Shown here piece by piece: positions 36,720 to 62,583 of a DNA stretch of 64,000 nucleotides. The stretch comes from Thermoproteota archaeon (GTDB lineage: Archaea; Korarchaeota; Korarchaeia; Korarchaeales; Korarchaeaceae). The stretch is taken from the NCBI GenBank assembly GCA_027491415.1, contig JAOZFH010000018.1, positions 1 through 64,000 of the forward strand, in the 5' to 3' direction. A program made the position numbers and the translations under genes. The notes beneath the pieces were generated by a model. That model was given only the letters and a program-made list of their open reading frames with translations. It had not been told where the DNA came from and ran no database searches. How positions within the stretch are numbered: position 1 is the first letter of the stretch; each line of letters starts with the position of its first letter.

Positions 36720-37616
36720 TCAGACGAGCCTTAGAATCTTGGCGAGGGCCGTCTTCAGGAGTCCCTTGAGGAACGCCCTGCCCATGTTAGAGACCGGGGC
36801 CGTAACCGTGGAGTACCTGGCGTCGTCGCTCAGCGTCACCGGCGCCCCCCTGACGAGCACCGCAGGGATTCCCTCGGACCCCTGCCCCATGAGGAGGGCG
36901 GCCGCTGCCGCGAGCTCGTCGGCCACGAGGTCCACGCCCCCGAACTTGGGCTTCCCATAGAGGTCCGGCTCTCCGAAAGACCTCCTCACGGGGTCGATTC
37001 CGGAGACACCCACGGCCCAGTCCACGGAGCCCATCCTGAACGGCGCGAAGTCCGTGTCCGAGATCACCACGCCGACCCTGGCCCCCGTCAGCTCCCTGAT
37101 GCGCTCCGCTATCTCCCGGGCCTCGGCGTCTGGGTCGGGGGGAGGGAGCGCGGCCACACCCTCCGGGCAGTTGGACCAGTCGATCCCTGCGTCCGTGATC
37201 ACGACTCCGGCCACCTCGGCCAGTATCGTCCCCCCCTCCTCCTCGACCATAGCCCTCGCCGCCTCCGGGTCCGGGGAGAACTCCTCCGGGAAGCCGGTCC
37301 CCCTGCTTGCCTCCGAGAAGGGAAGTATCAGCACGATCCTCCCGACGCTCCTGACGAGTTCCACGAGCCAGGCCGGCCTGCCCGCTATCCTGGCCAAGAT
37401 CCTGGACTTGAGGGAAGGCTTCACGTCAGAGATCCGCACCAAGTGGCCCTTCGCCTTGGAGACCACCTTGCTGGCTACCACCAGCACGTCGCCGTCACTG
37501 AGCTCGATTCCCATGGAATCGATCGCGGAGAGGATCACACTCGGGAGATCGTCTCCCTGCCTGAGTTCCGGGAGCCTCAACCCAATTAACTCAATCCTCC
37601 CACCCGGATTAGACAT
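36720..37616 (-). CDS. CofE-like (F420-0:glutamyl ligase fold) protein, copy 1
   Basis: GDDL, DGDVLVVASKVVSKA, AGIDWSN, VGVVISDT, VADELAAAAALLMGQ..EGIPAVLVRG. Confidence 0.85.
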   Translation of the reverse strand: MSNPGGRIELIGLRLPELRQGDDLPSVILSAIDSMGIELSDGDVLVVASKVVSKAKGHLVRISDVKPSLKSRILARIAGRPAWLVELVRSVGRIVLILPFSEASRGTGFPEEFSPDPEAARAMVEEEGGTILAEVAGVVITDAGIDWSNCPEGVAALPPPDPDAEAREIAERIRELTGARVGVVISDTDFAPFRMGSVDWAVGVSGIDPVRRSFGEPDLYGKPKFGGVDLVADELAAAAALLMGQGSEGIPAVLVRGAPVTLSDDARYSTVTAPVSNMGRAFLKGLLKTALAKILRLV

Positions 37617-37743
37617 GAAATATCCTCCCCCCTGATCAGACGCCAAGACTATTAGCTGGTTTGCCTTCTACATACAAGCGTTCGTGGTGTTCGGCTCTCA
37701 CTATGAATGAACCTGACGAGTCGAAGGGGAGCGCGGGAGGAGG

Positions 37744-39162
37744 TTGAAAATGTCCCCGAGGTCTCACGCTCTTTCCGCCTCCAGCACAAACATACCAGAG
37801 ATTGCGTCGCTTGTCTGGGTTATCTTGGCCACGATCGTGCTGCTGGAGAGCACGGGAGACTGGGTGCCGAAGCAGGTCGACCCACTGAGCTTGCTCGGCA
37901 GGGCCGTGGGGCTCCTGGCGGCTGGTATGGCCCTCATCATCCTGTATTTCATCGTGCTTCAGAGGCTGGAGGCCCTTCTCTGGAGGGACTGGAAGTACTT
38001 CACCTGGGGGCAGGCACTCCTGGCATACTTCCTGCTCATCGAACTCGTCGACTCGGCCTTCGTCCTCCCTGAGTACGTGCACGTGATGGAACTCCTCACG
38101 ATCCTAATCTCGGTGGGGATATGCTCCTGGTCACTCACGTCGATAATGGCCAGGCTGGCCTCCCTATTGACCGCCAAGAGGGGGGTCCCCAGGGTTCGAC
38201 CGACTTGGATATTCGCAGCGTGGCTAGCTGTGCTGATCTCAGTCACCGCGTGGTCGCTTCGATACGTCAGGCCGCTCCCACGGCCGAGGTATCTGGACCT
38301 TACCTTGGACATAGCGATCGCGGGCGTGCTCGCCGCGAACCTGTGGAGGCTCACCAAAGCCCTGGGGACGGTCACAGGGGCCGGCAGGTGGCTAGTCGAG
38401 GCCTCCATCACCTCGATGGCACTTGGCGCGGTGGCGGAACTCTACGTGATGTTCGAGGACCTGTTCCTCACCCCAAAGACGATGAACGTTTTCGGTTACA
38501 CTCTCACGGGAGCCATCGCTCTTGGGGTGGCCATATCCGGGTTCGGCTACTATCTGCTGGGAACCACGCCATATAGGGAGCCCCCCAACACGGAGGGGGA
38601 GGGTGGACCGGAGATTGACTGGAGGGAGTTTGGCCTGGACGTCGGAGGAGAGGGCGAGGTTATTCTGATGGAGTTCGAGCCTCTAACATCTCCCTCGGAG
38701 ATGATAGCTAGCCTAGTGTCGTGGCTTAGGGAGCTCGACATGAAGATCGTGGTGATCGCTAGGCGGGGTATCCCTCTGAGGGAGGTGGCGTCGGAGTCTG
38801 ACCTGACTATCCGGGTCAGCCCTGGCAGGATGGCCGCGCCTAAGGAGCTGTCTCCGGGCGAGCTGGAGGTGGGCCTGAGCCCATCCGTGATCCTGGGGAT
38901 CGTGAGCAGGTTGATCACGCCCGAGAGGAGGATGTCGCTCGTGGTGGAGAACGTCAGCGATATGACCACTCTCATCGGGTTGGACGGGGCCTACCGCCTG
39001 ATCAGGGCCCTCATAGACATGCTGATCCCGGAGAGGGCCGTGGTAGTGCTCGTAGTGAACCGAGGCGCCCACGGCGATCGGGAGATGAACCTGATGAGGG
39101 GTCTCGCCACTTGGATCATTAACGCCACGCGATACCCACCCGAGATCAGGAAGGTGGCCTGA
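37744..39162 (+). CDS. About 8-TM membrane protein with C-terminal inactive KaiC/DUF835-like domain, copy 1
   Basis: Eight hydrophobic segments; alpha/beta tail VILME..LVVENVSDM..GAH.DREMNLMRGLATWII; no Walker A. Confidence 0.7.
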   Translation: MKMSPRSHALSASSTNIPEIASLVWVILATIVLLESTGDWVPKQVDPLSLLGRAVGLLAAGMALIILYFIVLQRLEALLWRDWKYFTWGQALLAYFLLIELVDSAFVLPEYVHVMELLTILISVGICSWSLTSIMARLASLLTAKRGVPRVRPTWIFAAWLAVLISVTAWSLRYVRPLPRPRYLDLTLDIAIAGVLAANLWRLTKALGTVTGAGRWLVEASITSMALGAVAELYVMFEDLFLTPKTMNVFGYTLTGAIALGVAISGFGYYLLGTTPYREPPNTEGEGGPEIDWREFGLDVGGEGEVILMEFEPLTSPSEMIASLVSWLRELDMKIVVIARRGIPLREVASESDLTIRVSPGRMAAPKELSPGELEVGLSPSVILGIVSRLITPERRMSLVVENVSDMTTLIGLDGAYRLIRALIDMLIPERAVVVLVVNRGAHGDREMNLMRGLATWIINATRYPPEIRKVA

Positions 39163-39198
39163 GGTTTTTGGGGATCTAGGTTAGGGTTAAGACGGCCC

Positions 39199-40524
39199 TC
39201 AGCCGGATGCGAGCCTCGTCGCGGCCCGGGAGGCCCGCTCCACCACCTCCCCCGCGTCCATCGTCATTATCCGTCTGGCCCTGACAATCACCCTCCCGTC
39301 GACTATCACCGTGTCCACGTCGTCGCCGGTGGCAGAGAAGACCAGCGCCGATACCGGGTCCCTCTGAGTGGAGAGGTGGGGCCTCCTGAGGTCCACCAGG
39401 ATTAGGTCGGCCCTCTTGCCGGCCTCCAGCGTTCCGATCTCATCGGCGAGTCCCAGCGCCCTCGCCCCGTTCACGGTCGCCATCCTGAGCACGTCCCAGG
39501 AGGTCAGCGCCCTTGGGTCGAGCCTACTCCCCCTCTGGAGGAGGGCCGCAAGGCGCATCTCTCTGAACATGTCGAGGGAGTCGTTGCTAGCCGGGCCGTC
39601 GGTCCCCAGGGCGACGTTCACCCCCTCCCTGAGCATGTCGGCCACCGGGGCGATGCCGGACGCCAGCTTTAGGTTGCTGGCCGGGCAGTGGACCACGCTC
39701 GCCCCCTTGGAGGCCAAGAGTGAGATCTCCTCCCGGTCGAGCCAGACCCCGTGGGCCGCCAGGACGTTGGGTCCCAGCACCCCGAGGGAGTCCAGGTAGG
39801 AGGGGGGCCCCTCCCCAGCTCTCTCCCTGAGCTCCTCAACCTCCCTCCTGGTCTCGGAGAGGTGTATGTGGAGCCTCAGACCCCTGGACCTGGCGAGCTC
39901 GGCGGAGGCGCGGAGGAGCTCCTCAGAGCACGTGTACGGGGCGTGCGGACCCACTGCCGCCCTTATTCTGCCGCCGCCAGCCATGTGCCAATCCTCTATG
40001 AACCTCTCGGCCTCCCTGAGCTCCTTAACGGTCTTGTCCGGATCCCTCTCCCAACCCGGGGCGTCTATCATCCCGTAGGAAAGGACTGCCCTCACCCCGG
40101 ACTCCAGAGCGGCCCTTGCCACCGAGTCCTCGTGGAAGTACATGTCCGAGAAGGTGGTTGTTCCCGAGAGGAGCATCTCCAAGATCCCCAGCCTCGCGCC
40201 GTCTAGCACCTCCTCTGGACCCATCTTGGCCTCTACCCTCCATATCTCCCTGAGCCACTCGTCCAGCGGCCTGTCGGAGGCGAGCCCCCTCAGCAGGGTC
40301 ATGGCCACGTGGGTGTGGGCGTTTACCAGGCCGGGTAAGGCGACCATGCCCCTCCCCTCGACGACCTCCTCTGCGGAGACGGGCGGCATGGATGACCTCC
40401 TGCCGATTGAGACAATCCTACCTCCCTCGACGGCCACGTACCCATCTCGGATCACGAGCCCTGGCGGGTCGACGGGGATCATTGCGGAGGCCAGCACCAG
40501 GAGGTCCACATTTAGCCTGGTCAT
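39199..40524 (-). CDS. Amidohydrolase, MTA/SAH/5'-deoxyadenosine deaminase family
   Basis: PGLVNAHTH, GTTTFSDMYF, PHAPYTCS, HIHLSET, HCPASNLKLASG, LGTDGPASN. Confidence 0.92.
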   Translation of the reverse strand: MTRLNVDLLVLASAMIPVDPPGLVIRDGYVAVEGGRIVSIGRRSSMPPVSAEEVVEGRGMVALPGLVNAHTHVAMTLLRGLASDRPLDEWLREIWRVEAKMGPEEVLDGARLGILEMLLSGTTTFSDMYFHEDSVARAALESGVRAVLSYGMIDAPGWERDPDKTVKELREAERFIEDWHMAGGGRIRAAVGPHAPYTCSEELLRASAELARSRGLRLHIHLSETRREVEELRERAGEGPPSYLDSLGVLGPNVLAAHGVWLDREEISLLASKGASVVHCPASNLKLASGIAPVADMLREGVNVALGTDGPASNDSLDMFREMRLAALLQRGSRLDPRALTSWDVLRMATVNGARALGLADEIGTLEAGKRADLILVDLRRPHLSTQRDPVSALVFSATGDDVDTVIVDGRVIVRARRIMTMDAGEVVERASRAATRLASG

Positions 40525-40588
40525 CTTCAGCCGAGGCGGACCTCGGTCCGTCAAAACGTTTTATCCACCGACCGACACGCGGAACGCG

Positions 40589-41818: not shown

Positions 41819-41825
41819 GCTCGGG

Positions 41826-43553
41826 TCAGACGGCCTTGGTTTGCCCTATCACCCTAGCGACGATGAAGTTCAGCGGGGGCGAGAGCCTCAGACACTCGCT
41901 GAGGGGGACTGTTGGGTACAGCTCCTTGTTTATGGCCACCTCCTTGTTAATGGTCAGCTCTCTGGCCCTCTCCAAGAACTCGGACTCCTCTTCTGGTGTG
42001 AGCGGTCCCCTCTGGAGTCTGGAGAATATTTCCCTGTCCAGCGCCACTCTCTCCTCGATTATCTCGTAGAGATCCTCCCCGATCATGCCCCTATTCCTCT
42101 TGACCCTCGCCAGATTAAGGGAGGCATTCAGGCTGGCCTCGACTATGTCCGGCCGATCCATCCACTTCGTCCTGTAGTTGAGGGTGAGACTCCAGTGGGG
42201 CTCCTCGAGGGCCCTGCGGTGGGACTCCAAGTCCCTGAACAGAATCTCGTACCCGTAGGCTTCTGGATGCTCAAACGCCGGGCTCCCAGGGTCAACGAAG
42301 GGGGCGAGGGGGGCCGTGAAGGCGTCCATCCGTCCTCCGCCGTGCAGGTTGATGAGTCTATCCACGTAGTCCGCCACCCCGGCCGCTATCTCGGGGGTCT
42401 GCCTGGGGAGGCCAGTCATGAAGTAAAGGTCCAGCCTCCTGAAGCCCAGCTCTCCCGACGCCCTCACCATCCGCTCTAGCTCCTCGTTCCCGTAGATCCT
42501 CCCAAAGGCTCGTCTCACGGACTCATCTTGGCTCTCAGGCGAGATCTGTATGTAGACGTCGTATCCGAGGGACCTCAAGGCCTCAAGGAGCCTCCTGCTG
42601 GCCGGGTAGAAGAACTCGAACATAAGGGGGTTGTCTAGGTCGGCCCTCTTGAGCCTCTCCACTACTTCCAGGGCCCCTTCCTCCCCTCTGCCGAGCCTTA
42701 GGTCCCCGATGAAGAATATCGTCATCTTGGAGATGGACGAGATCGACTCTGCCTCTCTGACTATGGCCTCTGGGCTCTTCAGGGCTACCCCTCTCCTGCC
42801 GAAGATCCTCTCCTGGGCGCTCCTCGAGCCGCCGCAGGTCACGCAGTTGTACGGACAGCCCTTAACGGTCAGGACGGCGGCGATGGGCGTGCTGATGAAG
42901 GAGGCGCAGGGCGCCACGAGGGCCAGGTCCCTCTCCCGGAGCGTCATCTTCACCAGGATCCTGTGGTCCACCTCGTAAGGGTCGAGAGTCTGGGGAGGGT
43001 CTCGAGGAGGCTCGAGCCTGATCCTGCCGTCGGCATCCCTCCAGGCCACTCCGGGAATCCCCTCCAGGCCCCTCCCCCGGTCGACTCTCTCGACTATCTG
43101 CTCGACCGCCTCCTCCGTCGTGTCGCCCAGCGCGACAGCATCAACGTATGGGTGAGCCTCCAAGATCTCTCTCCAGAAGTACGTGGCCGAGACCCCCCCA
43201 AGGAGGACGAGAGAGTCGGGGTGCTCGGACTTGATCAACCTGGCTACCTCAAGGGCCCCGTGAGCGTGGACGAGCCAGTGAAGGTCCACGCCGTAGACGA
43301 GGGAGTTCACGGACCGGATCGTCTTCAGTGGGTCATAGTCGGGGTCGAGTATCATCTTGGAAGCCAGGTTGAAGATGCCGACCCTCCTTCCCCGTCGGGA
43401 CAGCCATGTGGAGAGGGTCAGGAAGCCGTAGGGGTACATGTCGAATACCTGGAAGGAGGGCACTACCTCGCTCGTCAGGCACTTAAACATGGCTCTGCGC
43501 CTGAAGTCGAAGACACTGGGGGCGTGGAACAGGGCGAGGTCGTATTTAGCCAT
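41826..43553 (-). CDS. B12-binding radical SAM protein (TIGR04190/Ta0216-like)
   Basis: HAPSVFDFR, MYPYGF, DLHWLVHAHGA, KGCPYNCVTCGGS, PLAPFVDPGS. Confidence 0.85.
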   Translation of the reverse strand: MAKYDLALFHAPSVFDFRRRAMFKCLTSEVVPSFQVFDMYPYGFLTLSTWLSRRGRRVGIFNLASKMILDPDYDPLKTIRSVNSLVYGVDLHWLVHAHGALEVARLIKSEHPDSLVLLGGVSATYFWREILEAHPYVDAVALGDTTEEAVEQIVERVDRGRGLEGIPGVAWRDADGRIRLEPPRDPPQTLDPYEVDHRILVKMTLRERDLALVAPCASFISTPIAAVLTVKGCPYNCVTCGGSRSAQERIFGRRGVALKSPEAIVREAESISSISKMTIFFIGDLRLGRGEEGALEVVERLKRADLDNPLMFEFFYPASRRLLEALRSLGYDVYIQISPESQDESVRRAFGRIYGNEELERMVRASGELGFRRLDLYFMTGLPRQTPEIAAGVADYVDRLINLHGGGRMDAFTAPLAPFVDPGSPAFEHPEAYGYEILFRDLESHRRALEEPHWSLTLNYRTKWMDRPDIVEASLNASLNLARVKRNRGMIGEDLYEIIEERVALDREIFSRLQRGPLTPEEESEFLERARELTINKEVAINKELYPTVPLSECLRLSPPLNFIVARVIGQTKAV

Positions 43554-43588
43554 CTCCGGGCGGCCTTCTCAGCAATAGGAAAAAAATT

Positions 43589-44314
43589 TCACCGCAGCCT
43601 CTCGGCTACCACCCCAGTGAAGGTGCCCAGCGCGCGCCTGAACACCGTCCTTACCTCAAAGAGCCTTCTTATCTCTCTGACGAACTCTGATGAGGTCCAC
43701 ATGGCTTCGTACGTTGGGTAGAGCTCCCTCCACGGTGAGACGTCGACCCTCATGGTGGCCAGCCCGGCCAGGGCCGGGGCGATCCACCTGACGTAGGTCT
43801 TAGCCAGGGCGTCGACTGCCCGCCAGTCGGGCCTGGTGAGGTCGAGCACCCCCAGCCTCCCTCCTATCCTCAGGACGCGCCGCAGCTCCCTGAGGGCCTC
43901 TCTCCTATCTACGGCGTCCCGGAGGGAGTAGGCGGCCAGGGCCAGGTCCACGGACTCGTCAGCCAGCGGGATGTCCTCGAACGTTGCCCTGACGGCTAGC
44001 AACGTGAGTCCACTCCCCGCGCGGCTCGCCCTCTCCCTAGCCGCGACGAGCATCTCATTGAGCGGGTCGAGGAGTATCAAGGTTCCACCTGGCGAGAGGG
44101 CCTTCGCCAGCAGTTCGGAAGACTGACCCGGGCCGCAGCCGGCGTCCAACGCTGCCTCCCCGGGTCTGGGCCGCAAGTCGACCACGAGCCTCTCCCTTAG
44201 CCTTCCCGCGAGTCCCAGCGACATGGCGGCGTTGGCCCTCTCGTACACATCCGTGAGTTCGCTCAGCGCGGCCTCCACCCTCCCCCAGCGGTCGCCGGGG
44301 AGACCGTCGCTCAA
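43589..44314 (-). CDS. UbiE/MenG-like SAM methyltransferase
   Basis: YERANAAMSLG, LDAGCGPG, IPLADESVD, LRELRRVLRIGG. Confidence 0.8.
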   Translation of the reverse strand: MSDGLPGDRWGRVEAALSELTDVYERANAAMSLGLAGRLRERLVVDLRPRPGEAALDAGCGPGQSSELLAKALSPGGTLILLDPLNEMLVAARERASRAGSGLTLLAVRATFEDIPLADESVDLALAAYSLRDAVDRREALRELRRVLRIGGRLGVLDLTRPDWRAVDALAKTYVRWIAPALAGLATMRVDVSPWRELYPTYEAMWTSSEFVREIRRLFEVRTVFRRALGTFTGVVAERLR

Positions 44315-45132
44315 CCCTCCCACCTCGTCGCGTAAAGGGCTAGCTCCTTCAGGAGGTTCCTGGCCTCCGACGGCGGGACCAGGTCCTCCAGCAAGTCGAC
44401 GGCCCTGCGAGTGAAGTCCTCTGACGCGGCGCCTATCGGGCCGACGGGTTTGGCCTCAACCAAGGCGCTTATCTCACCCGGCTTTCCGAAGTCCAGCAGG
44501 TCGTCCCTCAGCTGGTAGGCCATGCCGACCAGCCTGCCGAACTCGGCCATCCCGCTGATCACCCGATCCTCGGCCCCCGCGATGATCGCGCCCAGCTCGG
44601 TAGACGCGCTGAAGAGCGAGGCGGTCTTCTTCTCCAGTATCTGGAGGTAGGCGTCGAAGGATATCGGCTCACCCCTCGCCCTGATCCTAGCCTCCTCCGC
44701 CTCGCCCTCGCTCATGACCCTCGTGGTCCTCGACAGGGCCCTGGCGATCCTCGGATTGCCGTAGTCGGCCGTCACGTCCAGCACGAGGGAGAGGACGAAG
44801 TCGGAGACGAGGATCGCGAGGTCTCGGCCGAACCTCATGTGAAAGGCGAGCTTCCCCCTACGGACCTGGTCGCCGTCTATCAGGTCGTCGTGAATCAGAG
44901 AGGCGGTGTGTATGAGCTCCACGGCCGCCGCGGCGGGGTCTGGATCTGGGTCTGCTCCGCCCCCGCAGACCTCGTGGCTCAAGTAGAGAAGGACCGGCCT
45001 GACCCTCTTCCCCCCAGAGACGAACTCCACGAGGGGCGCCGCGAATGGAGAGGACACGTGCTCGGACAGGAGCTTAGACAGGGCCTTATCAGCCCTCTCG
45101 ACGTAGGGGCGGAGCCTCTCCCGGAGCAACAC
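44311..45132 (-). CDS. Trans-polyprenyl diphosphate synthase (long-chain type)
   Basis: GGKRVRP, ELIHTASLIHDDLID..RRG, KKTASLF, YQLRDDLLD; Ala at -5 from FARM. Confidence 0.9.
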   Translation of the reverse strand: MLLRERLRPYVERADKALSKLLSEHVSSPFAAPLVEFVSGGKRVRPVLLYLSHEVCGGGADPDPDPAAAAVELIHTASLIHDDLIDGDQVRRGKLAFHMRFGRDLAILVSDFVLSLVLDVTADYGNPRIARALSRTTRVMSEGEAEEARIRARGEPISFDAYLQILEKKTASLFSASTELGAIIAGAEDRVISGMAEFGRLVGMAYQLRDDLLDFGKPGEISALVEAKPVGPIGAASEDFTRRAVDLLEDLVPPSEARNLLKELALYATRWEG

Positions 45133-45204
45133 CGATCGGTAGGGGGCTGTGAGTGGGGCGAAAATTAACCTTAGCCGACCAGGAGAGGGGAGCGCTTAAT
45201 TCGG

Positions 45205-48714: not shown

Positions 48715-49786
48715 CTACCTCCTGACGGTCGCCCTGATCTCGGTCGGGCTGGCCAGCTCATCGAGAACGATCAAGATCCCCGACTCGTCAACCCTCCTCA
48801 CGCCCGACAGTTCGGGGGACTCTACCGCGCCGATCCTCCACTCAGGTCTGACCGACAGCTCGATCGCCAGGCCCCTCACCGGCCTCTCGGCTTTGAGGTC
48901 AGCCCATAGCTCCCTTGCCATCGTAGCCCGGAGTGGCGGAGACTCCCCAGCGGCCTATCCACCAGGAGACGTAGGCCTTGAGGCCAACCCTGATGCCCGA
49001 GTCGTTCGAGCTTGTCGATAGGGCTACGAGCTTCCAGGCCCTGGTCTCAACGCTCAGCCCAGACTGGGGCGGTTCCAGTATCGGAAGGAGGCGTCCTCCA
49101 GGCATGGGGCGGAAGGGGAACGTCGTCCCTGCGCAGGGCCTGTCTCCAGTGGCTCTGAGGGACGTGACCACCCCTCTTCCGCCCGACCGGACGAACTTCA
49201 GCCAGTGAGCTCCATCGGGGGCGGGGGTCAGCCTCCTCGGGACTGGACTTACCGCCGTGAAATCTGCGCCCCTGGGGTGCGGCCAGATCCTCACGAAGGG
49301 CAGGTCCCAAGAGTGATAACAGGCCTCCAGCAGGCGCCTCAGCAGATCGGCCATGGAGTCCAGCGGGGGTATCCTCCCCCTGCACGGCCCTCCCCTGCCA
49401 GAGTAGAACTCCAGCGCGGCCCCGACGGGGTCCACACCTAGGTGGATGACCTCGCCGACCGCCGAGATGAACCCGTCCGCATCCACCCTGGCGCCGTCGG
49501 GAGTGTGCATCGGGCCGGCTACCGGGAACCTCCTGCCGAAGACCCGGATGTAGCCGGAGGAGGCGGCCTTCGGAGACTCGACGCTCCGACCCCTCGCCCC
49601 TCTCGCGCCAAGAACTACCGAGGTGACTGTGGGGTCGGGTGGATCCATGCCGGGCGGGACTATTACGACTTGGTGCTTCTCGGGGTCTGGCCGGCCCGTA
49701 AGCTGTCTCGGGACTCCAATTACGTTCAGCAGCTGCTCCAGGGCGGCCGCGCTCGTGCGGTCCGCCTCCAGCACGGCCAGCCTCAG
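48715..49786 (-). pseudogene. Hypothetical protein (degenerate polysaccharide-deacetylase-like) split by a +1 frameshift near 48913
   Basis: PFVRIWPHPRG..FTA motif; removing one G joins ..YDGK to ELWADLKAERPV.. of ORF 48715-48921. Confidence 0.5.
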
Positions 49787-50134
49787 GTGAGGACCCTAAG
49801 CGCGTGACGGCGGGAGTGGGCTTAATTGTGCGGCGCAGCGGAGTAACTACGCATGTAATACGGAGGGTATAGGAAGAAATGAGTCCATAATTTGGCACGT
49901 TCGTCTGTCAGATGCGTTGAGGGAAGCATCGGCCCCGTGGGACCACTTGGGTCCGCGAAATAGGCCCGTTTCGGCTGAAAGCTCAAACCTTCGGAGTGGA
50001 GTTATCTCGCTCGATGTAACGCGACCCCTACGAGGAAAGAGAAGGCGCTGAGGCCTTTTTCGAGCTCACAGATGACTTTTTACTTGACGCACGTGCCGCC
50101 GAACCCTGAAGAAGCTCTGTCGGGGTGGTCACGA

Positions 50135-50956
50135 TTGACGGCCAGCCCGACCGATAGGCTGATGACGGGGATCGAACCCATCGACTACACCCTTGGCGGC
50201 CTGCCCCGCGGCTACAACGTCCTGATCCTAGGGAAGCCCGGAACGGGCAAGACCCTATTCAGCATCAAGATGGCGTATCACATGGCTTCTTCAGGCGAGA
50301 GGGTAGTCTTCGTCACTATCCCCACCCCAAAGAGCATGTTCGAGGCCCAAGTGGCCTCGATGGGCATCGACCTAGCCGAGCTGGAGAGGAGGGGGGTCCT
50401 CAAGCTCATCTCGCTGGCCGACCCGAGCAACCGGGTTGAGGGGGAGAGCCTCTTCGTCTCGATGCTAGGCACGATAGAGGAGCACGATCCTTCCGTCGTG
50501 ATAGTGGACGACCCCTCCATCTTGGTCACTAGGGTGAGCGTGCCCTTCCTAGTGGGGACGATCTCAGGCGAGCTGGGCAGGGAGACAAAAGAGCTAGGGA
50601 GGCTTCTGGTGGCTGCCATGGACGAGGACATCCTCAGGATATACAGAGAGCACCACGCGTTCCTGCTTAGCAGGGCAGACATCGTTTTGAGGCTGGAGAG
50701 CGAGAAGCGGGGCGGGAGGATGGTTAGGAGGATGGTCGTCGTGAAGTCCAGGGGTATGGCCCCAACCGCCCACTGCGTCGACTTCGAGGTGGACCAGGCG
50801 GGGAGAATCCGCCTGGCTCACCCCAGCCGGCCCGGGTGCTCTGAGGGGGTGAGGAGGGGGCTCGAGTGGGAGAGGAGATCCCCCAGGGCGTCCCAGGGGA
50901 GGGTCAGAGGGGTCGGCGCTGAGGACCTGGCGCCCGGGGCCGACCAGATGGCGTGA
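50135..50956 (+). CDS. Single-domain KaiC/RAD55-family ATPase
   Basis: TGIEPID..GGLP, GKPGTGKT, VVIVDD, ADIVLRL, VVKSRG; TTG 50135 follows a GGGGTGG SD. Confidence 0.9.
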   Translation: MTASPTDRLMTGIEPIDYTLGGLPRGYNVLILGKPGTGKTLFSIKMAYHMASSGERVVFVTIPTPKSMFEAQVASMGIDLAELERRGVLKLISLADPSNRVEGESLFVSMLGTIEEHDPSVVIVDDPSILVTRVSVPFLVGTISGELGRETKELGRLLVAAMDEDILRIYREHHAFLLSRADIVLRLESEKRGGRMVRRMVVVKSRGMAPTAHCVDFEVDQAGRIRLAHPSRPGCSEGVRRGLEWERRSPRASQGRVRGVGAEDLAPGADQMA

Positions 50957-51001: not shown

Positions 51002-51829
51002 TTGAGGGTCTACGTGTCGGCGGACCTCGAGGGAGTGTGGGGAGTCGTCCACGGAGAGCACACCTTTAGGGATGGGAGGGAGCACGACAGGGCCAGGAGG
51101 TGGATGACTGAAGAGGTGAACGCGGCCGTCGAGGGTGCGATCAGGGCTGGGGCGGAGGAGGTCATGGTGAACGACTCGCACGGGACCATGAGGAACGTTA
51201 TCCCGGAGGAGCTTCACCCCGAGGCCTCGCTCATCACCGGGTCGCCCAAGCCCATGGGCGTGCTGGAGGGGCTGACCGCCGAGTTCGACTGCGCATTCTT
51301 CCTAGGCTACCAGCCATGGCCGGGGAGAGGGGCGTGCTGAGCCACACCTACAGCGGGAGGACCGTCAGGCGCGTGGCGGTGGGCGGGAGAGAAGTGGGCG
51401 AGTTCGGGCTCAACGCGATGGTCGCCCACCACCTGGGCGTGCCAGTGGTCCTGGTGACGGGGGACGACGCGCTCGCGGGGGAGGCGAGAGAGGCCGCGCC
51501 GGAGGCGGTAGCAGTGGCGACGAAGAGAGCGCTCGGCAGGTACGCCGCGATGTGCCCGCCTCGAAGGAGGGTGCTGGAGGAGATAGAGGAGGCCGCGTTC
51601 CAGGCAGCGAGGGGGGGTCGCGGAGGGGCGCGTCAGGGTCAGGCCCCCGGCTGGGCCGCTGGATGTCGAGGTCGAGTTCACGGATCCCGGGATGGCCGAC
51701 GTCGCCCACCTGGTCCCGGGGTTGGTGAGAGTGAGTCCGACAACCCTGAGGTTTCGGGCGGAGGACGCGCTCGAGGCATACAGGGTCGTCAGGGCGTTCA
51801 TGTACCTCGCCATCGCCGTGGCAAGGTAG
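51002..51829 (+). pseudogene. dppA: M55 D-aminopeptidase with two compensating frameshifts
   Basis: VYVSADLEG, VNDSHG, GY(H)AMAG..LSHTY, GEFGLN, VTGDD; one base missing at about 51312 and one extra G in the G7 run 51611-51617. Confidence 0.85.
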
Positions 51830-51909
51830 GCAGAAGGAGATCCTCGTGGGGGGTGGGGGCCCTCCCGCCGTTATAACTTGCCGAAGGCGCCCCACCCCCG
51901 GTGGTCTGA

Positions 51910-52966: not shown

Positions 52967-52989
52967 GGATCAGGAGCCTCCAGAACTCG

Positions 52990-53206: not shown

Positions 53207-53536
53207 ATGGAAGGAATAATCGACACGGTAGTCCGCACCCTCGGACTGAGGCCCAGGGCCGCGGAGATCCTCCACCTCCTGGCGAAGGAGGGCGAGCTCA
53301 CCATATCCGAGGTGGCCAGGGCGCTCAGCATCTCGCGGAGGGCCGCCCACGACTGGCTCCACCACCTCCTCTCCAGGAGGCTGATCAGGCGGCGACCGGT
53401 GGAGAGGGGTGGCAGGCTGTCCTACGCCTACTTCCTGCCGCCCCCCTCGGAGATGATCCAGGCGGCCGCGGATCACCTGAGGGAAAGGATCCGGGAGCTG
53501 GAGCGCCTGCTCGAGGGAGGTGAGCGGCTTGAGTGA
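53207..53536 (+). CDS. TrmB-like HTH regulator
   Basis: LGLRPRAAEI..LTISEVARALSISRR..LIRR..YAY; TTTTATAC upstream; overlaps the radical SAM gene. Confidence 0.85.
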   Translation: MEGIIDTVVRTLGLRPRAAEILHLLAKEGELTISEVARALSISRRAAHDWLHHLLSRRLIRRRPVERGGRLSYAYFLPPPSEMIQAAADHLRERIRELERLLEGGERLE

Positions 53537-54977
53537 CCTGGCCGGGTCCGTCGGGGCCTTCAAGAGGGTCATCGAGAGCCCGGCCTCGAGGATGCTGCTT
53601 CGGAGGCTCCTGAAGGAATGCCCTGGGACGGGAAAGACCAGACTTGAGGTGTCCCTGGAGGTCATCGCGGGGGTCAGAGACCGGGAGCGCCTACCGATGC
53701 CCTGCCGGACGGCCGCAAGGCTGACCGAGCTCGTGCTCAGGATGGGCGCCAAGGCGTTCGGGGCCGACTTCTCGGAGCTGAGGAGCAGGATGGGCGAAGA
53801 GCACTGGAGGAGGGCGCTGGTCAGCGTCATAAGGGGGCTGGAGGCCTTCGGCGTGCGCAGGCCCTTCGTGCCTGGGGCCCCCTTCCTGGTGGTCTGGGAC
53901 GTCACGTACGCCTGCAACCTCCGGTGCAGGCACTGCTACGCCAACGCGGGCGTGCCTCTGGAGGACGAGCTGACCACGCAGGAGGCGAGGAGGGTCATCG
54001 ACATCCTGCACAGGGCCGGCGTCGTGGCGATAGCCTGGTCCGGGGGAGAGCCCCTGGTGAGGCCCGACATATACGAGCTGAGCAGGTACGCCCACCAGAA
54101 GGGGTTCTACGTGGCCATGGCGACGAACGGCACGCTCATAGACGAGGAGACCGCCGACAGGCTCTGGGACTCCGGGGTGAGGTTCCTCCAGATAAGCCTC
54201 GATGGGGCCTCGCCGGAGACCCACGACGGGTTCAGGGGCGTCCCCGGCGCCTGGGAGAGGACTGTGAGGGGGATAAAGGTCGCGGTCAAGAGGGGCTTCT
54301 TCGTCAACGTGGCGACCACGGCGACGAAGCTGAACTACCGGGAGATTCCCCGGATCGTGGATCTCGTGCGGGAGCTTGGGGCCCAGTGGTTCATGGTGTA
54401 CAACTTTGTGCCCACCGGCAGGGGCGTGTTCATCGACCGGTTCGACCTCTCGCCAGAGGAGAGGGAGGAGCTGCTCAGGTGGCTCTGGGAGAAGCTGAGG
54501 GAAGGAGGAAGCCCGAAGGTGCTGACCACGGCCCCCCAGTTCGCCAGGGTGTCCCTGCAGGCGGAGGCGAGGGAGGGCAGGCGTAGCAAGCTGGTGCTGC
54601 CGACCCACTTCTACGACGCCGAGCTGGGCGGGAGGCTCAGGAGCCTGGCCGACTTCATAGGCGGTTGCGGGGCTGGCAGGTTCTACATCGGGCTCTCGCC
54701 CAACGGGGACGTGAGGCCGTGCGTGTTCTTCCCGAAGACCCTGGCCAACGTGCTCGAGCTGGAGAACGACTTCGAGGAGTGGTGGCGCACCGACGAGTTC
54801 CTGTGGAGGCTCAGGGACAAGGACTCCCTGAAGGAGCCCTGCGGGACCTGCCCGTTCAGGTACGTCTGCGGGGGGTGCAGGGCGAGGGCCTACGGCTACC
54901 TGGGAGACCCACAGGCGCCCGACCCCGGTTGCCTGCTGGTCGCGAGGGCAAGGGCGGAGAAGGTCCGCGTCGCGTGA
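53520..54977 (+). CDS. Radical SAM/SPASM protein with N-terminal extension (possibly Gms/GMGT-synthase-like)
   Basis: PFLVVW..CNLRCRHCY, SGGEP, NFVPTGR, LTTAPQFARV, FIGGCGAGR..PC, CGTC..CGGCRARAY..DPGC. Confidence 0.85.
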   Translation: MSGLSDLAGSVGAFKRVIESPASRMLLRRLLKECPGTGKTRLEVSLEVIAGVRDRERLPMPCRTAARLTELVLRMGAKAFGADFSELRSRMGEEHWRRALVSVIRGLEAFGVRRPFVPGAPFLVVWDVTYACNLRCRHCYANAGVPLEDELTTQEARRVIDILHRAGVVAIAWSGGEPLVRPDIYELSRYAHQKGFYVAMATNGTLIDEETADRLWDSGVRFLQISLDGASPETHDGFRGVPGAWERTVRGIKVAVKRGFFVNVATTATKLNYREIPRIVDLVRELGAQWFMVYNFVPTGRGVFIDRFDLSPEEREELLRWLWEKLREGGSPKVLTTAPQFARVSLQAEAREGRRSKLVLPTHFYDAELGGRLRSLADFIGGCGAGRFYIGLSPNGDVRPCVFFPKTLANVLELENDFEEWWRTDEFLWRLRDKDSLKEPCGTCPFRYVCGGCRARAYGYLGDPQAPDPGCLLVARARAEKVRVA

Positions 54978-55741
54978 GCGACCGCCGACGCAAGCTCAGC
55001 TCGACCGGCCCGCCTGGAGAGGAGCGGGAGCGCTCGGCTCGCCCCGCCCCGCCCCCTGGACCCTCCTCCAGCCTCGACTATCTCACCGTCCCTGATCCTC
55101 ACTATCCTCTCCATCCTCCTGGCCACGTCTACGTCGTGGGTCACGACCAAGAGGGTCGTGCCGAGCCTATCTTTCACATCCAGCAGGAGGCCCAGCACCT
55201 GCTCCCGCGTCTTGCTGTCCAGGGCCCCGGTGGGCTCGTCGGCGATTATCAGCTTCGGGGACTTGGCCAGCGCCATGGCGATGGCCACCCTCTGCTGCTG
55301 ACCCCCGCTCAGCTCGTGCGGCCTGTGGTTCGCGTGTCCCTCGAGGCCAACGAGTCTTAGGGTTCTGAGGGCCTCCTCCCTGTCTGTCCTGCCGAACCTC
55401 GCCTTCTGGGCCAACATGACGTTCTCCAGGGCCGTGAGCTCCGATATGAGGTTGTAGCTCTGGAAGATGAAGCTCACCCTCGACCTCCTGAACCTCGCCA
55501 GCTCGTCCTCGCTCAGGTAGACGAGGTCCACCCCGTCGACGTAGACGTGGCCGTAGGAGGGTCTGTCTAGGCCAGCAATGATGTTGAGGAGGGTCGTCTT
55601 GCCCGAGCCGCTCTTCCCCAGGATGGCGACGGACTCCCCCCTCTCGACCTCCAGGCTCACGCCCCTCAGCACGACCAGGTACCTGCTGCCGATCCTATAG
55701 GCCTTGTAGACGTCGACCAGCCTCACCATCGGCTCACTCAT
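54896..55741 (-). CDS. ABC ATP-binding protein, LolD/MacB type
   Basis: GKSGSGKTT, FIFQSYNL, LSGGQQQRVAIA, ADEPTGALD, VVTHD; 3' end overlaps the convergent radical SAM gene. Confidence 0.95.
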   Translation of the reverse strand: MSEPMVRLVDVYKAYRIGSRYLVVLRGVSLEVERGESVAILGKSGSGKTTLLNIIAGLDRPSYGHVYVDGVDLVYLSEDELARFRRSRVSFIFQSYNLISELTALENVMLAQKARFGRTDREEALRTLRLVGLEGHANHRPHELSGGQQQRVAIAMALAKSPKLIIADEPTGALDSKTREQVLGLLLDVKDRLGTTLLVVTHDVDVARRMERIVRIRDGEIVEAGGGSRGRGGASRALPLLSRRAGRAELASAVAHATRTFSALALATSRQPGSGACGSPR

Positions 55742-58891: not shown

Positions 58892-58897
58892 CGCTGA

Positions 58898-59401
58898 TCA
58901 CCTCTCGCCCCTCACCGTCACCTTCCCGACCCCGCGGCAGACGGACAGGACTAGGACCTTCGGGAGGCCCTCGGGGATCACGACCTCTCCGCAGCGATAG
59001 ATTCCCCTCACCCTGGACCTGAAGGTCTCCTCGTCGACGTCGTCCGCGAACTCGAGCCTCTTGATCCGGATCAGGACCAGCTCCCTGTCCGCCTCAAGCA
59101 GGTCCTTCCTCGTGAGGGTGAGCTCGTCTATGTCCTCTATGACGCGCCCAAGCCCCTCCAAGAAGCCCCTCATGAATTCGGCCGAAATGCCGATGGCCCC
59201 TCCGGGGAGGGGCGGCTCTCGGTCGTGGGGAAACATCGAGAGAAAGAGCTCCATGGACTGGTTGAGGAGCGTGCCGACATTTACCCCCATCCTCCTGGCC
59301 AGCCGACTCAGCCGCCTGTAGAGGGAGCGATCCACGCCCCGCACGGTGATCTGCCCGAACCTCCTCTCCTGGCGGCTCTCCCCGTTTCCCGCGCTGTGCA
59401 T
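58898..59401 (-). CDS. Hypothetical protein with N-terminal ribbon-helix-helix-like domain
   Basis: QITVRGVDRSLYRRLSRLARRMGVNVGTLLNQSMELFL; ATG 59401 with TATA about 32 nt upstream. Confidence 0.75.
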   Translation of the reverse strand: MHSAGNGESRQERRFGQITVRGVDRSLYRRLSRLARRMGVNVGTLLNQSMELFLSMFPHDREPPLPGGAIGISAEFMRGFLEGLGRVIEDIDELTLTRKDLLEADRELVLIRIKRLEFADDVDEETFRSRVRGIYRCGEVVIPEGLPKVLVLSVCRGVGKVTVRGER

Positions 59402-59411
59402 TTGTGATCGG

Positions 59412-59440
59412 ATGTAGTGCAAATGTAATGCGTATATAAA
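59412..59440 (-). promoter_or_regulatory. TATA box and 11-bp-period direct repeats upstream of the RHH/S-layer/ABC operon
   Basis: Plus strand ATGTAGTGC (59412-59420) and ATGTAATGC (59423-59431); minus-strand TTTATATA at 59433-59440. Confidence 0.6.
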
Positions 59441-59599
59441 TGACGCAGCCGGGCCACCTGGTCGAGCTGGTGCGAAGGGGGACGAGCGGCGCTGAGGCCG
59501 ACGCGATCGACCTCGCCGGGGCCACGACCTCTCGCCCGCGGAGCGTCTGGCGGAGGGGACTCTCGACCTCCTGCTAGATCTGGGAGGTCCTCGCAACCG

Positions 59600-59607
59600 T
59601 TATATAC
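59600..59607 (+). promoter_or_regulatory. TATA box of tRNA-Trp
   Basis: TTATATAC about 26-33 nt before the mature 5' end. Confidence 0.75.
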
Positions 59608-59632
59608 TGCCTGGCCCCAGAGGGCGTGCGGT

Positions 59633-59771
59633 GGGGCCGTGGCCCAGCCAGGTGGCCTCCCGATGATAAGGCCGAGGTCGCCCTGGAAAGGTCAGGGCGG
59701 CGGGCTCCAGTCGGTGGAGCACTGAGGGGGAGACCCGTAGGACGTGGGTTCAAATCCCACCGGCCCCACCA
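59633..59771 (+). tRNA. tRNA-Trp(CCA) with two introns: 59650-59688 (17/17a) and 59711-59732 (37/38); CCA end encoded
   Basis: Acceptor stem GGGGCCG/CGGCCCC, D stem GCCC/GGGC, anticodon stem GCGGG/CCCGT with loop CT-CCA-GA, T arm GTGGG-TTCAAAT-CCCAC; bulge-helix-bulge geometry at both introns. Confidence 0.95.
59657..59730 (+). ncRNA. Putative box C/D guide split across the two tRNA-Trp introns, predicted target Cm34
   Basis: Box C ATGATAA 59663-59669 (intron 1), box D CTGA 59722-59725 (intron 2), closing stem CTCCC/GGGGG, guide TGGAGC complementary to G31-A36 with D+5 on C34. Confidence 0.6.
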
Positions 59772-59774
59772 CGC

Positions 59775-59815
59775 TTTTCTGCCCGTTTTTGGGCTCTCTT
59801 ATTTCTTATCTTCTC
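59775..59815 (+). terminator. T-rich terminator after tRNA-Trp
   Basis: TTTTCT-GCCCG-TTTT-TGGGC-TCTCTTATTTCTT. Confidence 0.6.
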
Positions 59816-60101
59816 GCTTGGGCCATTCTCCGGGCGATTAGATGCGGCAGGTACGCCGACCCAAGGGCAACGAGCCCCGGAGGAGGGCTCCAGCAAGCAG
59901 CGCGGCAACCCTGAGGCTCTCAGTCGGGTTGAAGACGTCCCAGACGATCATCATTGCCAAGAAGGCTGCCGATGGAGCCAGCGTGAGGAAAGTCCCAAAA
60001 ACTACGTTGAGGTCACGCTGAGGGCCTACCCAGCGATCGTATGGCCAGGCGAGCCGATCTGGATGGAGGCCTTCGCCCCCGTGGCGATCCCGCCTCAACC
60101 C

Positions 60102-61505
60102 CTAGGTCAGGTCGATTATGTTCGTGGCGAGGCTCCTCAGCAGGTTGACCAGCTTCGGGTCGTGGGCCTCCGGCGGCAGGACTATCACCACCACGGAATC
60201 GTGAGCGGCCAGCTGGTCGATCATCGCCCTGAGGAGCCTGTAGGTGCTCTCCCCACCCAGGAGAACCAGCAGGCCGGTGGTGTCCTCGACGATCACAGCC
60301 AGCCTGTCTCCCTCCTCCCTGGCCCTGGATATCATCCCCAGGATTACGGCCGGATCCGCCCCTATCTCGAACTCCCCCACCCCGACCTGCTTAGGCGGTC
60401 CCATCCTGCCGGCGGAGACGTAGAGAGCGAGCGAGGCGTGCTTGGCGATCTTGGGGGCCGCGGGGGATGACCTCCTCCCTATCAGCACGACCCTGTACCC
60501 CTCCGACTCCAGGTGGGAGGCCAGGTCCTCGAGCGCATCGGCGTAGCCCCTCATTGTGGAGACCTCGAACAGGATGACCCTCCCGGAGAACGTCCCCAGG
60601 CGGCTCCACTCGTCCGGACGCCTGGACCTGATTGGCCCCACCTCTGGCAGGCCCAAGGGCCGGGTAACTTCGGGGAGCGGAGGCCTGAGAGCCGTCGTGC
60701 CGTACAGGTAGTAGGCGACCAGCGCGAGCGCCAACCCCAGGGCCACGGCGGCGCTCCCGCTCACCCCGACGATTCTCACGACGTGGGGGATGATCAGCGT
60801 GTCGTCCAGCGTGGTGAAGACGCTGGCGGCGGCCCCCAGGTACAGCGCGCCGGAGCCGCACCTCAGCAGCCACCTGGCCGGGTAGCCGGACCTCCTCGAC
60901 TCCAGCAGGAGCCTCGTGCCCAGGACGGCGTCGAACGCGAGGTTGATTATGTCGAACGGGACCTCCCCCAGCTTGGGTTCGGGCATCGTCGGCCACTCCC
61001 ACGGCCTCTGGGCGATAACCACTGCAGTCAGGAATGCGAGCCAGCCGACGAGCACCAGCAGGGGGTCCACCCGCGGGGTCGCCCTCTTGGCCGTTAGCCC
61101 ACTCGTTAGGTCGGTCAGGTAGCTCGCGAGGCTCCAGCCAGCCACGAGCGTTGCCAGCACCGTGCACCCGAGCTTGTAGAAGTGCACGATGGGCGGAACC
61201 TCGAAGACCGTCTCTACTACGTCCAGCCAGCCGAACATCACCATCACGCTCAGGCCCGCCAGGACTCCCCTCCAGTGCCCCGACAGGAGCGCCTCGACCT
61301 TCGACTTCCAGGCCGTGTAGAGGAGCGAAGTGAAGGCCATTGCCCCTAGGAGGCCGATAAACCTCAGGAGGAACTCAGCCTGGGTGAGGGGGCGGAGGCT
61401 CCACTGGCGAGATGTGGCGGCGACGACGATGGCCCCTAAGGCGATCCAGATGGCAGCGAGGGCCTCCTGAACTGAGAGCCGCAGGCCCCTACCCTCCTCG
61501 TTCAA
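60102..61505 (-). CDS. About 8-TM membrane protein with inactive KaiC/DUF835-like domain, copy 2
   Basis: Paralog of 37744-39162: EALL, LTAKR..PRV, ALG.A..YYL.GTT, VSAGRM..PK, P.VILG, YRL.RA.ID, AH..NL.R.LAT.II. Confidence 0.75.
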   Translation of the reverse strand: MNEEGRGLRLSVQEALAAIWIALGAIVVAATSRQWSLRPLTQAEFLLRFIGLLGAMAFTSLLYTAWKSKVEALLSGHWRGVLAGLSVMVMFGWLDVVETVFEVPPIVHFYKLGCTVLATLVAGWSLASYLTDLTSGLTAKRATPRVDPLLVLVGWLAFLTAVVIAQRPWEWPTMPEPKLGEVPFDIINLAFDAVLGTRLLLESRRSGYPARWLLRCGSGALYLGAAASVFTTLDDTLIIPHVVRIVGVSGSAAVALGLALALVAYYLYGTTALRPPLPEVTRPLGLPEVGPIRSRRPDEWSRLGTFSGRVILFEVSTMRGYADALEDLASHLESEGYRVVLIGRRSSPAAPKIAKHASLALYVSAGRMGPPKQVGVGEFEIGADPAVILGMISRAREEGDRLAVIVEDTTGLLVLLGGESTYRLLRAMIDQLAAHDSVVVIVLPPEAHDPKLVNLLRSLATNIIDLT

Positions 61506-61668
61506 CGCCTAAACACCCGTCTACGGTTTCTTCGTGGGCACCCGAGGCCCCCCCATAAAAGTGATAGGTCGGTTAGGCTTTCGAACCCGGCCGCCGCTAC
61601 GTTCGCCCCTCCTGTCCGGAAAAAACGCCGCGGTCAGATTAAATTCCGAGCCGAGAGTGCGTCGCCTA

Positions 61669-62583
61669 ATGAGATCTCCCTCCAAGGAGGATTCTCACCC
61701 CGCGGATGTCAGGATGATCGGGCTCAGGCTCCCTCGGGTTTTGGAGGGAGATGACCTGGCCGGGCTCATCGTCCAGGCCGCAGGTGAGGTTGGAGAGAGG
61801 CTCGAGGACGGAGACGTGCTCGTGGTGGCGAGCAAGGTGGTCTCTCGCGCCAAGGGATACGTCGTGAAGCCAGGGGAGGTCAAGCCGAGTATCAGGAGCA
61901 AGCTGTTGGCGTGGCTGACAGGCCGAGAGCCCTGGGAGGTCGAGCTGATCAGGGAGAGGGGAAGCCTCGCGTTCATCATGCCCTTCTCTAAGGCCACCAG
62001 GGGGACGGGCTTCCCGGAGAGGTTCGCGGTTGACCCGGAAGAAGCCAGGAAGATGGTGGAGTCCGCCGGGGATGTCATGCTCATGAGAGCCAGGGGGCTG
62101 ACCCTCGTCGACGCTGGGATGGACTACTCCAACTGCCCCGAGGGCCACGTCTGCCTGCTGCCGACAGATCCGGATGAGGAGGCCCGAGAGATAGCCGACC
62201 GCATAAGGGAACTCACGGGCGCCAGGGTGGGGGTCGTGATCTCTGACACGGAGTTTCAGCCCATGAAGATCGGCTCCATCGACGTGGCGGTGGGGGTCGC
62301 CAACGTCTTTCCGATCCGCAGGAGGTTCGGGGCCAGAGACTACTTTGGAAGGCCGAAGTTCGGGGGAGACGACTCCGTGGCCGACGAGCTCGCGGCCGCG
62401 GCGGCCCTGCTCATGGGGCAGGCCGACGAGGGCATACCCGTCGTGCTGTTCAAGGGGTTAGATGTTGAGATGGACGAAGAGGCCAGCTCCGAGGATTGGA
62501 TAGCCCCCAGCGGGAAGGTGACCCGGGTCATTATCGTAGGGGCCCTAAAGACGCTGATCGCAAAGCTCCTGAGGCTGGCTTAG
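61669..62583 (+). CDS. CofE-like protein, copy 2
   Basis: Paralog of 36720-37616: DGDVLVVASKVVS, RGTGFPE, SNCPEG, RIRELTGARVGVVISDT, PKFGG, VADELAAAAALLMGQ. Confidence 0.85.
   Translation: MRSPSKEDSHPADVRMIGLRLPRVLEGDDLAGLIVQAAGEVGERLEDGDVLVVASKVVSRAKGYVVKPGEVKPSIRSKLLAWLTGREPWEVELIRERGSLAFIMPFSKATRGTGFPERFAVDPEEARKMVESAGDVMLMRARGLTLVDAGMDYSNCPEGHVCLLPTDPDEEAREIADRIRELTGARVGVVISDTEFQPMKIGSIDVAVGVANVFPIRRRFGARDYFGRPKFGGDDSVADELAAAAALLMGQADEGIPVVLFKGLDVEMDEEASSEDWIAPSGKVTRVIIVGALKTLIAKLLRLA

Follow-up and report, generated by a model that had tools for sequence, protein, structure and literature searches.

Two head-to-head pairs of a long-form CofE-family ligase gene and a membrane protein gene with a KaiC-like tail in a korarchaeial genome

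Introduction

Among described enzymes, the closest counterpart of the ligases treated here is CofE of Archaeoglobus fulgidus (AF2256; PDB 2PHN, 2G9I and 7ULD), whose contacts with the deazaflavin ring are made, according to a structural account, by F92, by G153-C155 and by R234 of the partner chain (PMC10861534). The present work concerns two copies of a gene pair in which a gene for a CofE-family ligase stands head-to-head with a gene for a predicted membrane protein that ends in a KaiC-like domain, both copies being located in a stretch of 64,000 nucleotides (hereafter, the window; G+C content 63.8%) from a Thermoproteota archaeon of the family Korarchaeaceae (GenBank assembly GCA_027491415.1, contig JAOZFH010000018.1, positions 1 to 64,000). 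We call the ligase genes ligA and ligB, the membrane protein genes memA and memB, and each pair a cassette, A or B.

The two ligases share with the A. fulgidus enzyme the fold, the Asp / Asp-Thr / Glu metal site and the GID-SN motif, and GTP/Mn-dependent acyl-phosphate chemistry would be expected of them too; they differ from it by an insertion of 36 residues after F92, by hydrophobic residues in place of G153-R154, by an amphipathic helix of 23 residues in place of the R234 tail, by a KPKFGG-D motif and by having a membrane gene as a partner. A precedent for a different substrate within PF01996 is offered by the chlamydial FolC2-type ligase (TIGR04132), a member assigned to folate instead of F420; ligA and ligB reach 70.6 and 60.2 bits with this profile, against a cut-off of 350, and are therefore not members.

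On the membrane side, the nearest described arrangement is that of DUF835 (PF05763) and DUF7504 (PF24336), which likewise place a P-loop-less C-terminus with a KaiC/RecA fold after varied sensor or membrane N-termini; memA and memB differ in scoring at or below the family cut-offs and in having an orphan eight-helix N-terminus, found in five clusters. DUF835-like pseudo-KaiC domains are, to our knowledge, common in archaea and without a demonstrated partner. In one survey DUF835 carries the label 'iKaiC' and is treated as a signalling module (PMC5847659). FlaH/ArlH and PH0250 (PDB 4YDS, 4WIA and 2EKD) are the best structural matches of the korarchaeial tail; FlaH binds ATP (entry 4YDS), whereas the tail of memA and memB is devoid of the Walker A loop, and by sequence this tail matches no PDB chain.

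Results and discussion

The explanation that we place first, tentatively, at less than even odds and narrowly ahead of a plain duplication of F420 ligases, is that each cassette encodes a membrane-associated ligase together with a lineage-specific pseudo-KaiC membrane partner. The initial annotation of the window had described a head-to-head pair occurring twice in inverted orientation, with all four genes intact and with intergenic DNA lacking obvious similarity, and these statements hold. Both pairs are head-to-head, with cassette B inverted relative to cassette A (Table 1), and the similarities of ligA to ligB and of memA to memB are far above chance; dN/dS values of 0.07-0.30 for ligA, memA, memB and ligB, obtained against their orthologs at the loci L001, L005, L003 and L006 described below, place all four genes under purifying selection; and a MAFFT alignment of the two spacers, judged without a statistical test, contains no common block. 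The likely start codons given in Table 1 for ligA, memA and ligB rest on the lengths of the orthologs (298 aa for ligA; 304 aa for ligB in L005 and L006) and on GGAGG motifs, and the spacer lengths follow from these revised starts.

Table 1. Window coordinates of the two cassettes and of the KaiC-like ATPase gene between them
Feature	Coordinates	Strand	Longest open reading frame	Remarks
ligA	36720..37616	-	36720-37646	Putative GTP-dependent amide ligase, long form of the CofE family (PF01996); likely start M11 (37616), giving 298 aa
Spacer A	37617..37749			133 bp, divergent; GGAGG-type ribosome sites for ligA and memA; conserved AAGACTATTAG-like motif
memA	37750..39162	+	37744-39162	Likely start ATG at 37750; predicted 8-helix membrane domain (~37792-38556) and predicted cytoplasmic P-loop-less KaiC/RecA-fold domain (~38620-39159)
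KaiC-like ATPase	50072..50956	+		With Walker A loop; between the cassettes; Pfam KaiC E 4.4e-26; not counted in the module
memB	60102..61505	-	60102-61505	memA paralogue (32% identity over 463 aa, E 2e-63), same architecture
Spacer B	61506..61668			163 bp, divergent
ligB	61669..62583	+	61534-62583	ligA paralogue (57% identity over 290 aa, E 1e-109); 304 aa from likely start M46 (61669)

The assignment of both ligases to the CofE family, also made in the initial annotation, is upheld by PF01996 (F420_ligase; E 2.6e-58 for ligA and 8.5e-57 for ligB), by the TIGR01916 profile, whose scores are taken up below, and by an AlphaFold2 model of ligA (predicted local distance difference test, pLDDT, 91.5) that Foldseek superimposes on 2phn with a template modelling (TM) score of 0.89 on the target and 36% identity. 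Within this family, however, the korarchaeial enzymes belong with a longer subgroup. Among the best 120 homologues, on which the groups were defined, 25 are short (~250 aa), 84-85 are long (280-348 aa) and 11-12 are korarchaeial, and the long forms, of ~300 aa, were found in Thermoproteota (Thermoprotei), Bathyarchaeia (Bathyarchaeota), haloarchaea and others. Short and long forms are separated in the tree with a support of 99, and the korarchaeial ligases make up a single clade within the long forms (Shimodaira-Hasegawa-like approximate likelihood ratio test 99 with the entry P0164 and 96 without it), which divides into A and B subclades. We rejected P0164 as an intermediate ligase: it comes from a metagenome contig of 1741 nt and is a chimera, almost the same as the B-type P0166 in its N-terminal half and as the A-type P0161 in its C-terminal half, which arose either during assembly or by recombination across the conserved ARVGVVISDT stretch; it was included in the ligase tree that gave 99 for the korarchaeial clade and 97 within the A clade, and left out of the later one.

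What sets the long forms apart is found where A. fulgidus CofE contacts the deazaflavin. In a HMMER alignment to 2PHN/7ULD, the residues D156, D197/T198 and E244 (numbering of the 308-aa sequence) are shared by all 12 korarchaeial sequences and correspond to D109, D150/T151 and E208 of the A. fulgidus enzyme, which are reportedly its metal ligands (Nocek, 2007). The Phe (F110) equivalent to F92, the residue that stacks on the deazaflavin in the A. fulgidus enzyme, is also kept in all 12, and directly after it the long forms carry their 36-residue insertion. At the columns of G153-R154, by contrast, the dipeptide G-R, which belongs to the front face of the pocket, is common to the 25 short forms and A. 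fulgidus CofE itself (GRC) and is missing from 84 of 84 long forms and from all 12 korarchaeial sequences; the latter have F-A or F-Q at this place, and hydrophobic residues occupy it in every one of the 84 long forms. The region of R234 is unaligned, the alignment stopping at A. fulgidus residue 223. Since two of the three deazaflavin contact elements are altered or cannot be aligned and the third borders the insertion, the head-group pocket of these ligases has likely changed, which does not in itself prove a different substrate. The KPKFGG-D motif is invariant in the long forms. Residues 275-297 of the ligase model form a basic, amphipathic C-terminal helix, with a median hydrophobic moment of 0.54 across 74 long forms. 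A membrane-spanning C-terminus was considered and rejected, as the helix is hydrophobic enough to resemble a transmembrane segment in only 4 of the 74 and is amphipathic in most.

These residues bear directly on a rival explanation, namely that both ligases are ordinary CofE enzymes, products of a duplicated housekeeping gene, that add gamma-glutamates to F420-0 and that the membrane genes are unrelated neighbours or share a promoter region with them. We regard it as somewhat unlikely. The conserved fold and metal ligands and the retained F92-equivalent Phe speak for it; G-R, kept by every short form and absent from all 96 long and korarchaeial sequences, speaks against it, as do the positions of the insertion and of the new C-terminus, which coincide with the remaining two deazaflavin contacts, and the fact that the pair was duplicated and both genes retained. 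The long form also occurs in haloarchaea, where Haloferax volcanii has a separate cofE, 47% identical to AF_2256 (PMC8305020). A further argument against an ordinary CofE comes from the gene content. As the initial annotation had noted, cofC, cofD, cofG and cofH are lacking from the window: neither these genes nor F420-dependent ones were detected by Pfam among its 57 open reading frames or among the 22 scanned in the locus flanks. The radical-SAM genes of the window are not CofG or CofH, since NCBIfam places them with an AmmeMemoRadiSam enzyme (14200-15288), an AhbD/NirJ-like protein (53520-54977), the TIGR04190 family (41826-43553) and a MoaA-like protein (26406-27371). Literature found on CofE in Korarchaeota describes no long-form paralogue in the passages considered, and the papers listed for CofE-like proteins deal with F420 biosynthesis. 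On a megaplasmid of Natribaculum luteum (L007, 5980-8321), a long-form CofE-like gene lies beside a gene for a TIGR00341-family membrane protein, with a gene for a DASH cryptochrome ~2 kb away; the CofE-like gene bears the annotation of an F420 ligase despite its long-form motifs.

The membrane protein joins an N-terminal domain of its own kind to a more familiar tail. In the AlphaFold model of the memA product (11 homologues, pLDDT 76), eight helices spanning residues 17-271 are followed by a disordered linker and by an alpha/beta domain at 305-470. The eight transmembrane segments announced in the initial annotation are thus seen in the model, whereas a plain hydropathy scan finds fewer. Against the PDB, Foldseek matched the C-terminal domain only, retrieving PH0250 (2ekd), FlaH, KaiC, RecA, DnaB and Rad51 (E 7e-5 to 1e-3, probability 1.0, TM score 0.61 on the best target). 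Between the first strand (305-311) and the first helix (318-330), memA has the loop EPLTSPS and memB the loop STMRGYA, and neither the alignment nor the model contains the Walker A motif GxxGxGK[ST] in either tail; because the Walker A position is without its motif, the tail is, as modelled, an inactive KaiC-like fold, in agreement with what had been proposed at the outset.

At the sequence level this tail appears weakly DUF835-like, memA and memB both scoring 17.2 bits against a cut-off of 33.1, and DUF7504 reaches its gathering score with memB alone (27.2 bits, cut-off 27). An exhaustive profile search of 1.84 billion representatives returned 209 proteins at E up to 0.001; the full-length matches to the membrane family form five representative clusters (P0003, P0006, P0011, P0012 and P0013, of which P0012 and P0013 are distant homologues), the remaining matches listed covering the tail alone. 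The full-length family looks restricted to Korarchaeia-like genomes. The other proteins, ~200 in number, carry the tail domain behind varied N-termini, which in a Pfam scan of 25 tail homologues were MEDS, CARDB or others, with none of the 25 reaching the DUF835 cut-off; DUF835-type domains are combined with other domains in just such a mix-and-match fashion. The eight-helix domain, for its part, has no relative in Pfam or NCBIfam, and its best score against the ESM Atlas (0.84) is at chance level and points to no named family; the membrane-family profile has no match among PDB sequences at E up to 10, and a search for internal repeats in the membrane domain gave nothing significant (best E 0.04). 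A Pfam scan of memA and memB revealed no output domain beyond the pseudo-KaiC, neither DNA-binding nor kinase, and PADLOC, run on the four cassette proteins and five neighbours, reported no defence family for the cassette genes. In the model, the conserved polar residues W40, R53, H113, D189 and D239 would be situated close to where the helices are predicted to end on the outer side.

The membrane protein is polytopic, its helices contain conserved charged residues and the neighbouring ligase ends in an amphipathic helix, features that might also suit transport, the eight-helix domain moving the substrate or the product of the ligase across the membrane. Either a salvaged cofactor could then be trapped through its glutamylation, or a gamma-glutamyl product could be exported much as by bacterial PgsBCA, a poly-gamma-glutamate machine that is not homologous to the cassette proteins. 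The description of CofE as a processive poly-gamma-glutamylase (PMC10861534) would speak for transport. We nonetheless hold transport to be improbable, given that no transporter family is recognizable in Pfam, NCBIfam, the PDB or the ESM Atlas, that no internal repeat emerged and that DUF835-type domains are labelled as signalling modules (PMC5847659). A last way to connect the two proteins is that the ligase glutamylates the membrane protein itself, after the fashion of RimK or of tubulin glutamylases, an alternative also named in the initial annotation, which we judge very improbable: adjacency is the one point in its favour, and we know of no CofE-family enzyme that acts on proteins. Moreover, the alignment of memA and memB displays no common conserved acidic C-terminal tail and no obvious acceptor motif.

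A genome scan seeded with the membrane family gave six loci in four assemblies, which together with the window make five genomes. Two head-to-head pairs are present in the window and in JAOZFN (L001 and L005). CAZQNA (L006 and L002) retains memB-ligB and has, at memA, TetR and MacB-type ABC genes in the place of the ligase gene. CBEVRO and Kor2 (L003 and L004) show the order TtuA(-) memX(+) lig(-) memA(+), that is, a single A-type ligase between both membrane paralogues. Overall, a ligase gene stands next to 9 of the 10 membrane genes and a membrane gene next to each of the 7 ligase genes, the ratio of ligases to membrane proteins departing from 1:1 in three of the five genomes; equal-sized contigs suggest three further linked pairs (P0002/P0161, 3104 nt; P0008/P0167, 3560 nt; P0010/P0168, 55614 nt). 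The earlier view that the pair has persisted as a unit is therefore sustained by the adjacency counts and weakened by the synteny of the region as a whole, by the ligase loss at memA of L002 and by the two genomes with a single ligase.

The trees help to order these arrangements. The single ligase of L003 and L004 falls inside the A clade (support 97) and memX is the sister of memB (support 93), the membrane tree, with its long branches, being composed of an A clade and of a clade uniting memX and memB. From the position of this ligase and of memX it follows that the duplication of both genes predates these lineages and that ligB was lost later; judging from the trees, both pairs go back to one duplication older than the split of the genomes examined. 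The ancestral layout would probably have been a tandem array ligB-memB-ligA-memA, from which one deletion, that of ligB, would yield the order of L003. To judge by this distribution, the two ligases look functionally interchangeable, given that either of them can be lost and both membrane paralogues are always kept. In Kor2, memX (L004, 2304-3748) is split over two frames near 2801-2819, possibly as a pseudogene or through an assembly error.

The upstream region of memA has its own conservation. The AAGACTATTAG-like motif of spacer A is kept 5' of memA in L001, L003, L004 and L002. A motif GACGCCAAGACTATTAG (window 37638-37656; L002 ~9897-9913), situated ~100 nt upstream of memA, is conserved at all A-type loci and is still present in L002 although the ligase gene has been lost there; the motif likely belongs to the promoter of memA.

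The same genomes speak to the proposal, put forward in the initial annotation, that each cassette works by a logic akin to LuxI/LuxR, each ligase making a ligand for its cognate membrane protein and the two copies representing two specificities. In its favour one could cite the head-to-head arrangement and joint duplication of the pairs, the far more rapid divergence of the membrane paralogues, which have long branches and share 32% identity where the ligases share 57%, and the conserved polar residues near the predicted outer helix ends. An arrangement of one synthase per receptor is nevertheless not what the loci display: with 7 ligases for 10 membrane genes, memA of L002 stands without a ligase and L003 and L004 have one ligase, of A type, for two membrane genes of both types. 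Furthermore, the ligase is predicted to be cytoplasmic and GTP-dependent, with no export route evident, there is no output domain other than the pseudo-KaiC, and in the closest relative the KaiC-like ATPase nearby is cut short. The likeness to LuxI/LuxR is one of logic only, in that an enzyme and a sensor are neighbours, since homology, a DNA-binding output and a 1:1 ratio across genomes are all missing, and the claim of two cognate pairs is one that we consider highly doubtful.

In the explanation that we prefer, i.e., a membrane-associated ligase with a pseudo-KaiC membrane partner, the two proteins would form one unit at the membrane, the ligase being tethered or docked by its C-terminal helix. 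At the expense of GTP, the ligase would couple glutamate, or an amine like it, to a carboxylate substrate, not necessarily F420-0, and the membrane pseudo-KaiC protein would sense a cue from the membrane or from outside and scaffold or gate the ligase, acting as a lineage-specific partner rather than as the cognate receptor of the ligase product. A complex prediction with full-length memA and ligA scored 0.00 in both runs, which were made without controls, and counts neither for nor against binding.

Several observations weigh against this explanation, some of them by favouring an ordinary CofE. With TIGR01916, a profile of the 'equivalog' type, ligA and ligB score 197.8 and 204.1, above the cut-off of 180.65, and F420 is plausible in this class of organisms; some Korarchaeia are reported to have the F420-dependent Mtd, Mer and FrhB (PMC10667645), and another source credits TACK archaea with full F420 gene sets (PMC8498797). 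The amphipathic helix of the ligase could pack on the dimer partner rather than on the membrane. A functional link between ligase and membrane protein, whether by contact or by co-regulation, is plausible, and the gene arrangement that suggests it has to be seen against its surroundings: the whole 30-kb region, from TtuA to the amidohydrolase gene, is syntenic among four related genomes, so that general synteny could account for the adjacency and its conservation adds little beyond the duplication itself. In L002, memA persists without a ligase. Finally, long-form ligases are widespread and the full-length membrane family comprises five clusters, a mismatch in range from which it follows that most long-form ligases work without such a partner, and neither of two long-form genes from haloarchaea has a neighbour of the DUF835-like or 8-TM (eight-transmembrane) kind.

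A broader proposition, which we consider distinctly unlikely, is that the long forms as a whole, annotated throughout as F420 ligases, are a separate class of membrane-associated gamma-glutamyl (amide) ligases whose acceptor is not a deazaflavin but might be a pterin, a carboxylate that is lipid-linked or located at the surface, or a gamma-glutamyl chain under elongation, and that in Korarchaeia they are controlled by the eight-helix pseudo-KaiC protein or deliver their product through it.

The KaiC-like ATPase encoded between the cassettes, 9-11 kb from each, could have been suspected as a third component, inactivated KaiC proteins having reportedly been proposed by Makarova and colleagues in 2017 to work with an active KaiC-like ATPase. 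In a relative that is 95-97% identical and retains both cassettes, this gene is reduced to a remnant of ~96 aa (L005, 15240-15524), and the ATPase is therefore not an obligatory partner. An hhalign comparison of the membrane-family alignment with the window KaiC was not significant (E 0.2), the tail hidden Markov model did not match the ATPase, and PADLOC gave only weak matches for it. L005 is also without the 291-aa open reading frame at 48899-49774 of the window and without most of the Peptidase_M55 gene, which suggests that the interval around the ATPase is decaying. In the window itself, Peptidase_M55 (D-aminopeptidase) is split over two frames, 51002-51340 and 51316-51876 (profile positions 1-103 and 107-206), as a result of either a frameshift or a sequencing error; the ortholog in L003 is in one frame.

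As to the remaining surroundings, cassette A is flanked (35936-36691, 39199-40554 and 41826-45132) by a PNP_UDP-family nucleosidase/phosphorylase-like gene, by a gene for an amidohydrolase resembling methylthioadenosine/S-adenosylhomocysteine (MTA/SAH) or 5'-deoxyadenosine deaminases, by a LarA-family racemase gene and by genes for the B12/radical-SAM protein of TIGR04190, for a UbiE/MenG-like methyltransferase and for a polyprenyl synthase, which hints at a quinone or isoprenoid neighbourhood. At 1228-6046 and 25949-28094 the window encodes a molybdopterin oxidoreductase operon of the Psr/Nar type, with a catalytic subunit bearing a TAT signal, a 4Fe-4S subunit, the membrane subunit NrfD and a NarJ-like chaperone, in addition to MoaA, MoaC and MoaD-MoaE; from this operon and the Moa genes, the organism probably respires with quinone.

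Conclusions

The consequences of these observations depend on the acceptor of the ligase. Should an ordinary CofE turn out to lie next to an unrelated gene, the finding would be routine. If, on the other hand, the long-form subfamily is not an F420 ligase, the 'cofE' call would be wrong in many archaeal genomes, including those of TACK lineages that have been used to argue for F420 metabolism. If the ligases act on a non-deazaflavin acceptor in concert with the membrane protein, a DUF835-like sensor would for the first time have an enzyme assigned to it as a partner. An enzyme gene repeatedly kept beside a DUF835-like domain provides a concrete, testable pair.

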